NCBI GenBank assembly: GCA_000004695.1
Contig: CM000150.2
Span: forward strand, 1,376,001 to 1,440,000
Reading direction: 5' to 3'
Length of the DNA stretch: 64,000 nucleotides
Source of the DNA: Dictyostelium discoideum
Lineage: Eukaryota
Shown: positions 52,913 through 63,629 of the stretch, one piece after another
Layout: each line of letters begins with the position of its first letter
Position numbering within the stretch: position 1 is the stretch's first letter
Made by a program: the position numbers and the translations under genes
Notes under the pieces: model-generated
The model's input: only the letters and a program-made list of their open reading frames with translations
Databases searched by the model: none
Told to the model about the DNA's origin: nothing

Positions 52913-55383
52913 TTATAAATTATTAAATGATTTTGATAGTTTTGTTAATCTAATAGTTTTATCTAAAGAACCAGTTATAATAACATCACTTTGAGATGAA
53001 GAATTCCAATCACAAGTTACTACAGGACCAGTATGACCAGAAATTTGAAGTATTGGAGAAGATTGATCGATATTATACAATAGTGCAAATTTATTATTTG
53101 TACCAACTAAAAATGAAGATTGATTATGATTGAAAGAGATTTTAGTTGTACGATGAGGGTCAACCAAGAAACCAGGATAATCATATTCTTTCACTGGTTT
53201 ACCCATACTATGAATATTCCATTGATATAATTTACCATCTTTACCCAATGAGTAGAGTCTATTCTCATCGGAAGAGAATTGAACCGATAGAATTTCATTT
53301 GAATGTGCTTGCCAACCAGCAATTGGCGAACCAGATTTAATATCGAAAATTCTGATTGTACCATCGACACAACCAGTTGAAAGCAAAGTACCAGTGGAGT
53401 TAAAAGACATTGAATTAATGACAGCACCTGAGCTCGATAGTTTCTCTTCAGTTTTCAAAGTTCTCAAATTCCAAGTATAAACCACACCATCAGTTCTACC
53501 ATTGTTAATTGACGAGGTAGCAAATGAATTACCATTTGGATTGCATGCAATATCCTCAACTCTTGGAAACTCAATCGAGGTGTTAATATCACCGATCGCT
53601 TTATCGGTCAAACTATTCCAAATTTTAATCTTTGAATCTATCGTACCACATAGTAATAGTTTTGATCTATTTTCCCATTCCAAAGAGGCGACCTCAGAGA
53701 GACAATAGATAGTGGTTTGTCTACTACTAAAACCAACATTCCAAAGTCTAACAGTACCATCAATTGAAGAACTTGCAATCTTACTACCATTTGATAAGAA
53801 TTTACATCTTGTTATAGCTGATGAATGTGATGTACAAACCTCTTGTGATTCAATATTATAAACTAATTCACCATTTTCAATACCATCACTACCATTCAAT
53901 CCATTTGATGATTTCTTTTTAAATCCATTTTCATCAATTTCTGTCATTTCAAATCCTGATAAATTTAAATGTTGAAATCCATTATTATTTGTTACATTTG
54001 TATTTGTACCATTATTATTATTATTACTATTACTATTATTATTTGATGTATTTGTATTTGAATTTGAATTTGTATTTGTATTTGTATTTGAATTTGAATT
54101 TGTATTTGTATTTGTATTTGTGTTTGTATTTGTGTTTGTATTTGATGTATTATTATTATTAATATTATTATTACTATTAACACTATTTGTAGAAATTGAT
54201 TTTCTTGATCTTCCAATTCCAATCATTGGTTTATTATCATCATCATCCATTGCAGCGATATTTGTAGATGAAGTTGATCTTGGTTCAAATCTTTTACTAA
54301 CTCTTGAGAATGAATTAACTTCTCTTTCATTACTACTATTTAAATCATTACCGCTATTAAAATTATTTACATTTGATTCTTTTCTTTGACTTACATTACC
54401 AATTGTAAATCCACTATTGCTATTATTATTGCTATTATTATTTGATCCACTATTATTTTGATCTCTTTTATTTTGATATTCTAATTTATCAACTTGTGAT
54501 CTTAATTCTTCATTTATTGATAATAAATTTTCAACTTGTGTTTCTAATCTTTTTCTATTCTGTCTTTCTAAATTAAATTGTAAAATTTTTGGTAATGCTA
54601 AAAAAAATAAAAAAAAAAAAAAATAAAAAAAAAAAGTATTAATATGATAAAAAATAACAATTGAATTAATATTATGTATATACATACGTATGTTTTTAAA
54701 TATAGTTGATAAAAAATTTCTTAATGAAAGTGAAAATGCTTCTGACCAAGTTTTTGAAAAATAAATTTCAAATAATGGATCAGATTGTGGGTTTCTAATA
54801 TATGGTAATGCTATATTATAATTATGAGGAGATTAATAATAAATTAGAAATATATATATATATATTATAAAAATTAATAATGATAATTACCAAACCAAGA
54901 TTGCCAATCGGGATCTTTTAATAATTCTAAACTATATTGATCGAAAAATTCTTTAACTTTATCAATTTTATTATTATTTATTGCATAAATTACATAATAT
55001 TTTCGGAGAGATGATGATAATTTTTTAATTGTAGATTGTAAATCATTGTTATTGTTTCTATAAGATGTGTAACTACCATTACTATTATGATTTGAATTAT
55101 AATTATTGTTATTGTTATTATTATTATTATAGGCATTACTTTTATTGTAATCGATTTTACTAAAAAAAGTTATATCTAAGAAATTCCATAACTCTACTAA
55201 ATGGTTTATATCATAACTTGAAATATAAATATTAATTTGTTCTAATATTCTATCTACTTGAAATCCTTTTAATTTATCACCTTTCTTTTCTAATGAAAAG
55301 TAATGATTGGTTTGTGTAAATCCCCTAAATATTAAATATTCCTTTACAAGTTCATCCAAATAATTTAAATTTGAACTATTCAT
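52913..55383 (-). CDS. WDR91 homolog (LisH + CTLH-like N-terminus, coiled coil, C-terminal WD40 propeller). Proposed structure is complement(join(52913..54597,54688..54810,54891..55383)), about 766 aa.
   Basis: Exon 1 encodes LNYLDELVKEYLIFRGFTQTNHYF..KGFQVDRILEQI...IDKVKEFFDQYSLELLKDPDWQSWF, which matches human WDR91 DELVREYLLFRGFTHT / KGFRVDKIVDQL / [25 protein letters not shown]. Exon 2 (GTAATT donor, ATATAG acceptor) encodes ALPYIRNPQSDPLFEIYFSKTWSEAFSLSLRNFLSTIFKNI, matching WDR91 [38 protein letters not shown]. Exon 3 (GTATGT donor, TTTTAG acceptor) encodes a coiled coil (LERQNRKRLETQVENLLSINEELRSQVDKLE), an (ACAAAT)n-encoded Thr/Asn tract, and WD40 repeats (GTVRLWNV, KIKIWN, GTIRIFDI, DKTIRL). 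Confidence 0.8.
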
Positions 55384-55423
55384 TATATATATAAATATAA
55401 TAGAGGAGAATTCTTTTTTATTA

Positions 55424-55454
<31 letters not shown>

Positions 55455-62783: not shown

Positions 62784-62815
<32 letters not shown>

Positions 62816-63629
62816 GATGTTTTTAAAGATCTTTCATATAACCTTGGTCTTTGTTGACTATTATTATCATTACTATTATTTATCCAATTCTTTTTAACAA
62901 CTTGAATTGAAATTTCATCACCATCATATGAAGATGCTTCGAAACTACCTTGTTTATATTTAATGGTTGTTCTTTTTCTTGGCATTGAATTTAAATCATT
63001 TAATGAAATTGATGTTGATAATGGAGTTGTTGTTGTTGACGTTGATGATGATGATGATGGTGACAATGGTGATGATGGTGCTGGTGGTGGTGCTTTTTCT
63101 CCAGTATTATCTTCATCTCCTTCACCACTATTATTATTATTTTCTTCAGAATTATTATTATTATTTTTATTTTTATTTAAATCATGATCGTTATGTTTAT
63201 TTGCATATTGTAATAATATTGAAGTTGATTTATCTTTAATTAAATCATCAATTATATTATTATTACTAATGTTTACAAATCCATTGCTACCTATTAAACT
63301 ACTATTATTATTACTAGTTTTATTAAAAATAAAATCTATTGATCCTTTGTGAGCCTAAATAATTGAAAAAAAAAAAAAAAAAAGAAAAAAAAGGAAAAAA
63401 AAGTTAATATAGATAAGAGTAAAATGAATATTGTAAAAAGTGGGTGTGTGTGTATGTGTATGTTTTGGGAGTATATTAAGATTATAAAAATACATACGGA
63501 TACAGTTGAAAGATTAAATGAAATTGAATTCTTTGAGTGAATATCTTCTTGATCAAGTGAGAGGAAACAAATGTTTAATTGTTTTTCAATCTCTTCTTTT
63601 ATCTCTTCTTTTGATACTGTTTGCCCCAT
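56947..63629 (-). CDS. WDR81 homolog: N-terminal kinase-like (pseudokinase, HGD) region, BEACH domain, long low-complexity linker, HEAT/ARM-like region and C-terminal WD40 repeats. Proposed structure is complement(join(56947..63354,63498..63629)), about 2179 aa.
   Basis: The track ORF (first 'M' is a TTG Leu) is open upstream to the acceptor TTTAG at 63355-63356. A 44-codon first exon begins MGQTVSKEEIKEEIEK.. (Gly2, a myristoylation-type start) and ends at a GTATGT donor at 63497. The BEACH signature is [36 protein letters not shown]...GWRDLTKTKYRLNKGDEQLDFQF. The following segment [68 protein letters not shown]...[22 protein letters not shown] matches human WDR81 ([123 protein letters not shown]), recalled from memory. 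A catalytic-loop-like HGDLQPSNIHL lies upstream of the BEACH domain, DMFALGCIIAELYQGYPLF lies downstream, and WD40 repeats are at the C-terminus (DNLVKIWSL, SIQVWD, SVIQWDL). Confidence 0.8.

Follow-up and report, generated by a model that had tools for sequence, protein, structure and literature searches.

Adjacent genes for WDR81-type and WDR91-type proteins in Dictyostelium discoideum: clear orthology and a young, most simply coincidental, gene order

Introduction

Animal cells contain a complex of two WD40 proteins that acts on the phosphoinositide metabolism of endosomes. WDR81 and WDR91 of animals co-precipitate, bind Beclin 1 and inhibit PI3K (PMC4738380), and in human cells the function of WDR81 needs the binding of WDR91 (PMC5025723). 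WDR91 is in addition an effector of Rab7, which it contacts through residues F570-N571-H572 in the human protein (PMC5626554). The published architecture of human WDR81 places a BEACH domain within the activation segment of a pseudokinase, in a layout that resembles VPS15 (PMC11554844). Dictyostelium discoideum has a separate VPS15-family kinase, and LvsG was catalogued in the same 2006 kinome paper as a borderline or inactive kinase with the table entry 'lacks K72, HGDLQPSN, inactive' (PMC1420674).

Here, we analyzed a stretch of 64,000 nucleotides of the D. discoideum genome (contig CM000150.2, positions 1,376,001 to 1,440,000; hereafter the window), in which lvsG is followed by a gene for a WDR91-type protein. 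Both genes belong to well-described families. An earlier sequence-only reading of the window held that neither protein had been characterized in social amoebae. As far as function is concerned our literature searches agree, as we found no functional study of either gene in Dictyostelium, but lvsG has been named and catalogued since 2006.

Results

Both genes are encoded on the minus strand and are arranged head-to-tail, with lvsG as the upstream and wdr91 as the downstream gene. The lvsG model (63629-56947) has two exons and encodes 2179 amino acids from an ATG at 63629, and the wdr91 model (55383-52913) has three exons and two introns, both GT-AG, and encodes 766 amino acids from an ATG at 55383. 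Positions, strand and order had been read in this way before, and both exon models bear them out.

63498..63629, minus strand: lvsG exon 1, 44 codons; starts with MGQTVSK, an N-myristoylation-type N-terminus
63355..63497, minus strand: lvsG intron, GT-AG (GTATGT...TTTAG); frame restored on splicing
56947..63354, minus strand: lvsG exon 2 including the stop codon, aa 45-2179
55384..56946, no strand: intergenic spacer, 1,563 bp, 12-15% GC
54891..55383, minus strand: wdr91 exon 1, aa 1-164; LisH-like start and first part of a CTLH-like domain
54688..54810, minus strand: wdr91 exon 2, aa 165-205; most conserved WDR91 block, (WF)ALPYIRNP...SLRNFLSTIF
52913..54597, minus strand: wdr91 exon 3 including the stop codon; charged coiled-coil-like stretch, N/S/T-rich linker and WD40 propeller
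52937-53860, minus strand: wdr91 WD40 propeller, aa 452-759

The gene models are independently supported, since residues 1-399 of the spliced lvsG model are identical to the published LvsG/DDB0231499 sequence of the 2006 kinome paper, the first exon is the same in the D. citrinum and D. purpureum orthologues, and the full wdr91 model is matched at 98% identity by a 766-aa protein of another D. discoideum assembly.

The domain architecture of LvsG places it with WDR81. Its BEACH domain sits between the two halves of a kinase fold, which are followed by a helical solenoid and a propeller:

62122..62340, minus strand: pseudokinase part 1, aa ~383-455, with the N-lobe end and the HGDLQPSN catalytic loop; LEGF in place of DFG
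61171..62055, minus strand: BEACH domain, aa 478-772, between the two pseudokinase halves; no PH domain before it
59617..61161, minus strand: S/N/Q-rich low-complexity linker, aa 776-1290, by composition; orthologues align in short patches only
59287..59571, minus strand: pseudokinase part 2, C-lobe, aa 1306-1400
58174..59283, minus strand: alpha-solenoid or HEAT-like region, aa ~1402-1771, from an AF2 model and a sequence match
56950..57915, minus strand: C-terminal WD40 propeller, aa ~1858-2179, from Pfam WD40 families, AF2 beta-strand blades and the WDR81 alignment

With the Pfam Beach profile (PF02138), the whole protein reaches 105 bits and aa 476-777 alone 125 bits, while PH_BEACH (PF14844) and the ConA-like domain (PF13385) are both absent from the Pfam matches of LvsG. 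The Pkinase profile is split by the BEACH domain, its positions 85-134 matching at aa ~396-448 and positions ~175-263 at aa 1306-1400, and the C-lobe gave weak matches to MAPK C-lobes in the PDB. Its catalytic motifs are degenerate, with HGD and without K72. In the AF2 model the solenoid region is all-helical with a pLDDT of mostly 80-90, and by sequence it matches the HEAT repeats of PP2A-A (E 1.3e-6). When the AF2 model of aa 1290-2179 (pLDDT 76) was compared with the PDB, the top six fold matches were a chain A of ~1,050-1,190 residues from the human PI3KC3-C1/C2 complexes (E 2e-21 to 1e-18), and the first match to a propeller only, Tako8, followed at 5e-15. From its length we infer that chain A is VPS15. 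VPS15 (PIK3R4) and LvsG would then share kinase fold, HEAT solenoid and WD40 propeller, although the BEACH insertion is found in LvsG only and the identity in the fold match is just 13-15%. The likeness extends to the N-terminus. VPS15 starts with a myristoylation-type N-terminus, and the dictyostelid LvsG orthologues with a correct start all begin with MGQxx(S/T)(K/R).

LvsG shares with human WDR81 and C. elegans SORF-2 the pseudokinase split around BEACH, the alpha-solenoid, the C-terminal WD40 region and the lack of a PH domain. There are distinct differences. The MGQTVSK start is missing in animal and plant homologues, LvsG carries an N-terminal extension of ~330 aa and the linker of 515 aa, and Pfam still recognizes its kinase signature, as it does in plants, while PF00069 is missing from the Pfam lists of animal WDR81. 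Outside the dictyostelids LvsG finds its best relatives in plant BEACH-kinase proteins (1e-99) and fish WDR81 (2.5e-96), while relatives of the neurobeachin/Lvs class come at 7e-14 or weaker, all of them with PF14844. Reciprocally, fish and frog WDR81 align to LvsG with ~400 bits in three collinear blocks of 25-38% identity (37-38% in the BEACH region), but reach at most 127 bits against PH-BEACH dictyostelid proteins, so that LvsG scores about three times better; neurobeachin behaves in the opposite way, with 104 bits against LvsG and 418-737 bits against the PH-BEACH dictyostelid proteins, these paralogues being drawn from other dictyostelids and not from the full D. discoideum proteome. PH-BEACH proteins (LvsA-F, neurobeachin, LRBA, LYST) have in common with LvsG a BEACH domain, a C-terminal WD40 region and the 'Lvs' name. 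However, the BEACH domain of LvsG is located early in the protein and inside the kinase fold, and the likeness is confined to the BEACH core with ~100-130 bits. Judged by sequence and predicted fold, the large gene is D. discoideum lvsG (DDB0231499), the WDR81 orthologue, and its assignment to the WDR81 type, rather than to LvsA-F, neurobeachin or LYST, is upheld by the missing PH_BEACH domain and by the reciprocal scores. Its UniProt name is presumably 'Probable inactive serine/threonine-protein kinase lvsG'.

In the predicted wdr91 protein, CTLH_Armc9 (PF23138) is found at aa 110-204 with 72 bits against a cut-off of 27. The block DELVKEYLIFRGF encoded by exon 1 is kept in animal, plant and fungal WDR91, and the WFALPY...NFL block was confirmed by alignment with WDR91 from fish, mayfly, melon and a mucoralean fungus. 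The top three PDB matches of the propeller are structures of human WDR91 (8shj, 6vyc and 8kb8; 9.2e-50 to 9e-46), each aligning in one unbroken stretch (aa 452/455 to 759), and the next match is a generic WD40 protein at 6e-37. The homologue search was rerun without low-complexity tracts, as the full-length query had returned dictyostelid-type matches only, with poly-N words filling the list. WDR91 from fish (1e-86), mayfly and melon were then among the named relatives, all with PF23138 and WD40. Down to 1e-41 the named relatives are all WDR91 or 'WDR91 homolog' or carry an ARMC9 CTLH-like domain, and generic WD40 proteins follow below. None of the matches from the homologue search or the PDB was SMU1, WDR26 or TBL1. 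Based on these alignments the small gene is the WDR91 orthologue, and here too the assignment made earlier holds, human WDR91 being the best PDB match and all named relatives being WDR91. We take its UniProt name to be 'WD repeat-containing protein 91 homolog'.

The protein has the same layout as human WDR91 and C. elegans SORF-1, that is an N-terminal domain of LisH/CTLH_Armc9 type and a coiled-coil-like stretch, and ends in a C-terminal WD40 propeller that it keeps like mammalian WDR91 and unlike SORF-1 (PMC4738380). It differs from WDR91 by a long N/S/T-rich linker (aa ~250-445) and at the position of the Rab7-contact triplet. Where human WDR91 has FNH, the D. discoideum protein has F-N-S and other dictyostelids have FNN or YNN, whereas FNH is found in fish, melon and a second amoebozoan, YNH in mayfly and LNH in fungi. 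Since the histidine of F570-N571-H572 is not conserved in dictyostelids, the Rab7 binding of their WDR91 may differ.

The spacer between the two genes presumably holds the 3' end of lvsG and the wdr91 promoter. A-rich tracts and AATAAA motifs lie directly 3' of the lvsG stop codon. A hidden third gene or RNA was considered and rejected: the spacer contains no tRNA, Rfam gave no match at gathering score over 52000-64000, the spacer ORFs are of low complexity only and at most 47 aa long, and neither D. citrinum nor a second D. discoideum assembly has a gene call in this interval. Unfiltered blastn gave mostly low-complexity noise, and the spacer was compared with its counterpart in D. citrinum by global alignment. 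The two align end to end; 66% of the columns are identical, and identity rises to at least 90% in a few islands. A tblastx match of 27 codons at 56647-56727 is unconvincing as an exon; D. citrinum shares several such short nucleotide islands, of which this is one.

The two genes neighbor each other in the assembly analyzed here as well as in the second D. discoideum assembly and in D. citrinum, where the spacers measure 1,571 bp and 1,515 bp, respectively. In the latter two the whole overlapping region of ~18 kb (44.0/45.2-63.9 kb of the window) is collinear. We extended the comparison to seven further genomes, five from dictyostelids, one from a fungus and one from a plant. The genes lie on different scaffolds in D. 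purpureum (GL871019 and GL871262) and on different contigs in P. violaceum (99 and 117). In C. fasciculata and A. subglobosum no WDR91 lies within 10 kb of WDR81, and the plant Trapa has none within 10 kb of its WDR81-like gene; likewise, H. album and the mucoralean fungus Zychaea have no WDR81 within 10 kb of WDR91. Contig P0003 is transcript-like, ends ~100 nt past the gene and is uninformative on neighbors. The proposal of an evolutionarily retained pair is contradicted by these data. Among the genomes compared, D. discoideum and its closest relative D. citrinum alone show the adjacency, with every neighboring gene collinear as well; it is young and most simply the coincidental outcome of a recent reshuffle.

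Discussion

Taken together, we regard it as likely that lvsG and wdr91 are two separate and ordinary genes, that their products form the WDR81-WDR91 complex known from animals, as homology suggests, and that their adjacency is recent and neutral. Both would be housekeeping genes that are transcribed separately. LvsG would be a VPS15-like dead kinase whose activation segment carries the BEACH domain and which continues into a HEAT solenoid and a WD40 propeller; by homology, it would most likely assemble with WDR91. Rab7 would bring the complex to maturing endosomes, macropinosomes and phagosomes, where it would restrain the Beclin/VPS34 PI 3-kinase complex and thereby lower PtdIns3P in the course of early-to-late conversion. 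A rearrangement in the lineage of D. discoideum and D. citrinum, after the split from D. purpureum, would have created the tandem adjacency. The arrangement is most likely a neutral coincidence, with the AT-rich spacer of 1.56 kb serving as lvsG 3' end and independent wdr91 promoter.

For yeast, a weak statistical tendency of the genes of stable-complex subunits to cluster on chromosomes has been reported. Here, however, we deal with a single pair that is adjacent in one shallow lineage only. It might be argued that the rearrangement produced a co-regulated tandem module which balances the stoichiometry of the subunits and is kept by selection, the co-regulation coming from a common chromatin domain, from spacer elements used by both genes or from coupled transcription. 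Strand and order are the same and the spacer is ~1.5 kb (1,563, 1,571 and 1,515 bp) in all three assemblies, several islands of at least 90% identity stand out from a spacer otherwise less conserved, and a need for dosage balance is plausible, as human WDR81 depends on WDR91 binding (PMC5025723). In addition, chance adjacency of one pre-specified gene pair is improbable, at about 2/12,500 (~1.6e-4). Scanning the whole genome for any partner pair in adjacent positions would, under rough assumptions that include an assumed number of partner pairs, be expected to yield 0.1-5 by chance, and it is only in this view that the pair is unremarkable. New adjacencies are plentiful. The species with the pair are related closely enough for all flanking genes to be collinear as well, and conservation is therefore silent on selection, while seven other genomes with one or both genes lack the arrangement and the complex would have worked unlinked throughout its history. 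The A-rich tracts and AATAAA motifs right after the lvsG stop codon also speak against coupling of the two genes. We thus consider an adaptive origin of the gene order unlikely, and it is somewhat more doubtful still that a young co-regulated lvsG-wdr91 module, acting via the conserved spacer islands or transcriptional coupling, keeps the subunits balanced. The functional linkage that the sequence-only reading had drawn from the gene order is unsupported. A lack of adjacency in related species had been named there as a weakening outcome, and this is what the synteny check gave for all genomes but those of D. discoideum and D. citrinum. As far as these genomes can tell, the comparison gives no hint of a function for the adjacency.

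The head-to-tail arrangement could also suggest one read-through or bicistronic transcript, and nothing else points in this direction. The 1.56-kb spacer has an intergenic-type composition of 12-15% GC with many stops in all frames, and in both D. citrinum and the second D. discoideum assembly the gene callers keep the two genes separate. Operon-like transcription is not known from Dictyostelium, and we judge such a transcript to be very improbable. Hardly credible is the reading in which there is no partner pair at all, with the large gene being a PH-BEACH paralogue or the small one being related to SMU1, WDR26 or TBL1. It could appeal to the 'Lvs' name used in dictyBase and in the kinome paper and to WD40 and BEACH domains that are common to those families. 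However, LvsG has neither PH_BEACH nor the ConA-like domain, the reciprocal scores of neurobeachin and WDR81 are opposed, the split pseudokinase with its VPS15-like fold is specific to WDR81 (PMC11554844), and named relatives of the small protein down to 1e-41 are all WDR91. Domain content and reciprocal comparison effectively refute it.

The retained kinase signature of LvsG and its conserved N-myristoylation-type start underline the kinship of WDR81 and VPS15. If it existed after all, a co-regulated module would be a young natural case of selection on gene order for a eukaryotic protein complex. For a complex that is linked to human neurodevelopmental disease, Dictyostelium offers a clear single-copy orthologue of each subunit, and macropinosome and phagosome maturation as well as PtdIns3P dynamics are easily imaged in this organism. 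As the genes are neighbors, a single deletion of ~10.7 kb (52913-63629) would take out the whole complex.

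LvsG and WDR91 are orthologues of WDR81 and WDR91

The window is very AT-rich, with coding sequence at ~20-38% GC and the spacer, the intergenic DNA between the two genes, at 12-15%. Our reconstructed gene models have the coordinates and the minus-strand, head-to-tail order that the sequence-only reading had claimed.

63629-63498 (exon 1) and 63354-56947 (exon 2), minus strand: lvsG, 2179 aa, GT-AG intron
55383-54891, 54810-54688 and 54597-52913 (exons), minus strand: wdr91, 766 aa, GT-AG introns
55384-56946: lvsG-wdr91 spacer, 1,563 bp

The first 399 residues of the LvsG model match exactly the LvsG sequence (DDB0231499) printed in the kinome paper's supplement (PMC1420674), and the wdr91 product is 98% identical to a protein labelled D. 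discoideum. The octamer CATTACCA opens both exons 2 and 3 of wdr91 (54803-54810 and 54590-54597, minus strand), right after the acceptor AG.

The Pfam hits in LvsG are BEACH (105 bits), WD40 at the C-terminus and a protein-kinase signature; PH_BEACH is not among them. A Pfam scan of sub-fragments mapped the layout of the kinase signature.

aa ~396-448: Pkinase profile positions 85-134, including HGDLQPSN
aa 478-772: BEACH domain
515 aa, after BEACH: S/N/Q-rich linker
aa 1306-1400: Pkinase profile positions 176-263

Since the two Pkinase halves flank BEACH, the BEACH domain occupies the place expected for the activation segment. An AlphaFold2 model of aa 1290-2179 (14 homologues, mean pLDDT 76, pTM 0.61) comprises the helices of a kinase C-lobe, an extended helical solenoid and a WD40 propeller. 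Its best six PDB fold matches are chain A (~1,050-1,190 residues) of human PI3KC3-C1/C2 entries, with E values of 2e-21 to 1e-18; judged from its length, this chain would be VPS15. The first propeller-only match is Tako8 (E 5e-15), and by sequence the solenoid matches PP2A-A HEAT repeats (1.3e-6).

In a large protein database the LvsG homologues rank as dictyostelid orthologues, then plant BEACH-kinase proteins (1e-99) and fish WDR81 (2.5e-96), while neurobeachin, LRBA-like and Lvs-type proteins enter only from 7e-14. In the reverse comparison, fish and frog WDR81 align to LvsG in three collinear blocks (pseudokinase and BEACH; C-lobe and solenoid start; WD40) totalling ~400 bits, against at most 127 bits for dictyostelid PH-BEACH proteins (the LvsA-F/neurobeachin/LRBA/LYST class). 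Neurobeachin scores 418-737 bits against the dictyostelid PH-BEACH paralogues and 104 bits against LvsG. Thus the gene, despite its Lvs name, is a WDR81 orthologue, as the sequence-only reading had proposed, and its best matches are not proteins of the LvsA-F/neurobeachin/LYST class.

The 2006 kinome paper lists LvsG among 'borderline' kinases, inactive and without K72 (PMC1420674), and its table gives the DFG as 'DFT'. This DFT sits in the conserved BEACH motif LPWVIDFT (aa 509-516, 61998-62010 region), and between the catalytic loop and the BEACH insertion LvsG reads LEGF (aa 450-455, LGLEGF); the tripeptide that the table names as DFG is therefore unlikely to be the true structural counterpart. 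The LvsG N-terminus MGQTVSK (63609-63629, minus strand, first 7 codons) fits the N-myristoylation consensus (Gly2, Ser6). All seven dictyostelid LvsG orthologues share MGQxx(S/T)(K/R), which is internal in one, where the start is probably mis-called; WDR81 of plants and animals lacks it. VPS15, the structural relative, is myristoylated.

The wdr91 product carries CTLH_Armc9 (Pfam, 72 bits, aa 110-204) and WD40 repeats. Its top three PDB matches are structures of the human WDR91 propeller (9e-50 to 9e-46), aligned in each case as a single stretch from aa 452/455 to 759, and generic WD40 proteins trail at 6e-37 and weaker. With low-complexity tracts removed, the homologue search returned dictyostelid orthologues, fish (1e-86) and mayfly (1e-76) proteins named 'WD repeat-containing protein 91', a melon 'WDR91 homolog' (6e-90) and mucoralean fungal proteins, all sharing PF23138 and WD40; SMU1, WDR26 and TBL1 were not among these homologues. 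In a multiple alignment the N-terminal blocks DELVKEYLxFRGF and WFALPYIxNP...SLxNFL are conserved among amoebae, animals, plants and fungi alike. WDR91-homologous sequence is present in all three exons, which bears out the earlier exon-by-exon assignment to WDR91.

In human WDR91, F570-N571-H572 is reported to be essential for Rab7 binding (Liu et al., PMC5626554). The FNH triplet is kept in fish, melon and another amoebozoan and reads YNH in mayfly and LNH in fungi, whereas D. discoideum has FNS (aa ~602-604, SFNSTG; 53440-53450 region) and other dictyostelids have FNN/YNN.

The adjacency is recent

We fetched the orthologue loci of both genes and compared their neighbours. In D. citrinum, WDR91 lies 1,515 bp downstream of WDR81 in the same orientation, and the two are likewise adjacent in a second assembly that carries the D. 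discoideum label (GCA_054859355.1), with a spacer of 1,571 bp. In both, all of the region shared with the window is collinear, the PIF1-like helicase and RNA polymerase III subunit genes included, and conserved adjacency there is therefore uninformative on selection for the pair. The nucleotide sequence of this second assembly, L013, is only 93-95% identical to window positions 44000-63949 over 20 kb of collinear sequence, a large difference within one species.

In D. purpureum, of the same taxonomic group, WDR81 sits in the middle of scaffold GL871019 with small unrelated genes after it, and WDR91 is found on GL871262, flanked by a SpoU methylase gene and an unrelated gene of 934 aa. In P. 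violaceum the two are on contigs 99 and 117, not adjacent. In C. fasciculata and A. subglobosum a NOP5/Nop gene comes next downstream of WDR81, and a tblastn search of the 10 kb to each side of WDR81 gave no WDR91. WDR81 was not found within 10 kb of WDR91 in H. album, and adjacency was not seen in the fungus Zychaea or the plant Trapa. Because the two genes are not adjacent in D. purpureum, P. violaceum and the other genomes compared, the ancestral state is unlinked, and lvsG and wdr91 were brought together after the D. purpureum split. The suggestion of an evolutionarily retained pair thus fails, with adjacency found, among the genomes compared, only in D. discoideum and D. citrinum.

A PIF1-like helicase ORF of 933 aa (47638-50439, plus strand; Pfam PIF1, 154 bits) with very long poly-N tracts is convergent with wdr91 and kept in D. 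citrinum. It is separated from the wdr91 3' end by a ~2.1-kb segment (50520-52621), in place of which the second D. discoideum assembly has an unalignable ~0.73 kb (L013 12800-13531); in D. citrinum the whole helicase-wdr91 gap is just 166 bp. The segment, whose ORFs have no Pfam match, could represent an insertion particular to this strain, or an orphan gene.

51494-51637, plus strand: ORF
51819-52250, plus strand: ORF, 143 aa
52341-52634, plus strand: ORF, 97 aa, (ST)n tract at its end

Coincidence or coupling

The spacer is intergenic DNA of a typical kind. It contains no tRNA, Rfam family or ORF above 47 aa, and A-rich tracts with AATAAA motifs begin at the lvsG stop codon. Its alignment with the D. 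citrinum spacer spans the full length, with 66% identical columns and eight short islands at least 90% identical.

56659-56738, 56276-56355, 56181-56225, 56096-56140: spacer islands
56033-56070, 55928-55967, 55638-55677, 55554-55607: spacer islands

These islands might serve in the regulation of wdr91 or as lvsG 3'-end signals, or might simply be slow-diverging patches between close species. A putative wdr91 promoter can reasonably be placed within the spacer.

The sequence-only reading took the adjacency of two partner genes to suggest shared regulation. Rough arithmetic on assumed inputs puts the chance adjacency of one pre-specified pair at ~1.6e-4. Given an assumed 500-5,000 partner pairs in 12,500 genes, 0.1-0.8 adjacent partner pairs are expected by chance, and ~1-5 flagged pairs per genome if a window-by-window scan flags any interacting neighbours, again on assumed inputs. 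The D. discoideum-D. purpureum split is put at ~400 My, and the blocks in which the two species share a perfectly conserved gene order have a mean length of only 2.8 genes (PMC3188802), so that new adjacencies arose by the thousand. We consider it probable that the partner genes are correctly identified and independently transcribed and that their adjacency is coincidental. Adaptive co-regulation of the lvsG-wdr91 pair, which the conserved islands would accommodate, seems unlikely, and the remaining readings taken together carry very little weight.

Probable function of the pair

Judged by homology, the products of lvsG and wdr91 would most likely form a complex. The animal proteins co-precipitate, each binds Beclin 1, and the endosomal PI 3-kinase complex is inhibited (PMC4738380); WDR91 binding is required for WDR81 function (PMC5025723), and active Rab7 recruits WDR91 (PMC5626554). 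Worm SORF-1 is similar only to the N-terminal part of WDR91 (PMC4738380), so the WDR81 contact probably lies in that part, which in our multiple alignment is the best conserved region of D. discoideum WDR91.

Both the architecture of WDR81 and its complex with WDR91 have been published before. In the literature searched we found no study of either protein in social amoebae, in agreement with the sequence-only reading, and no mention of the equation of LvsG with WDR81 or of the adjacency. This gap reflects a lack of attention and not a new kind of system; the finding is of a known and ordinary sort. For Dictyostelium endosome biology, the pair is of minor practical value.
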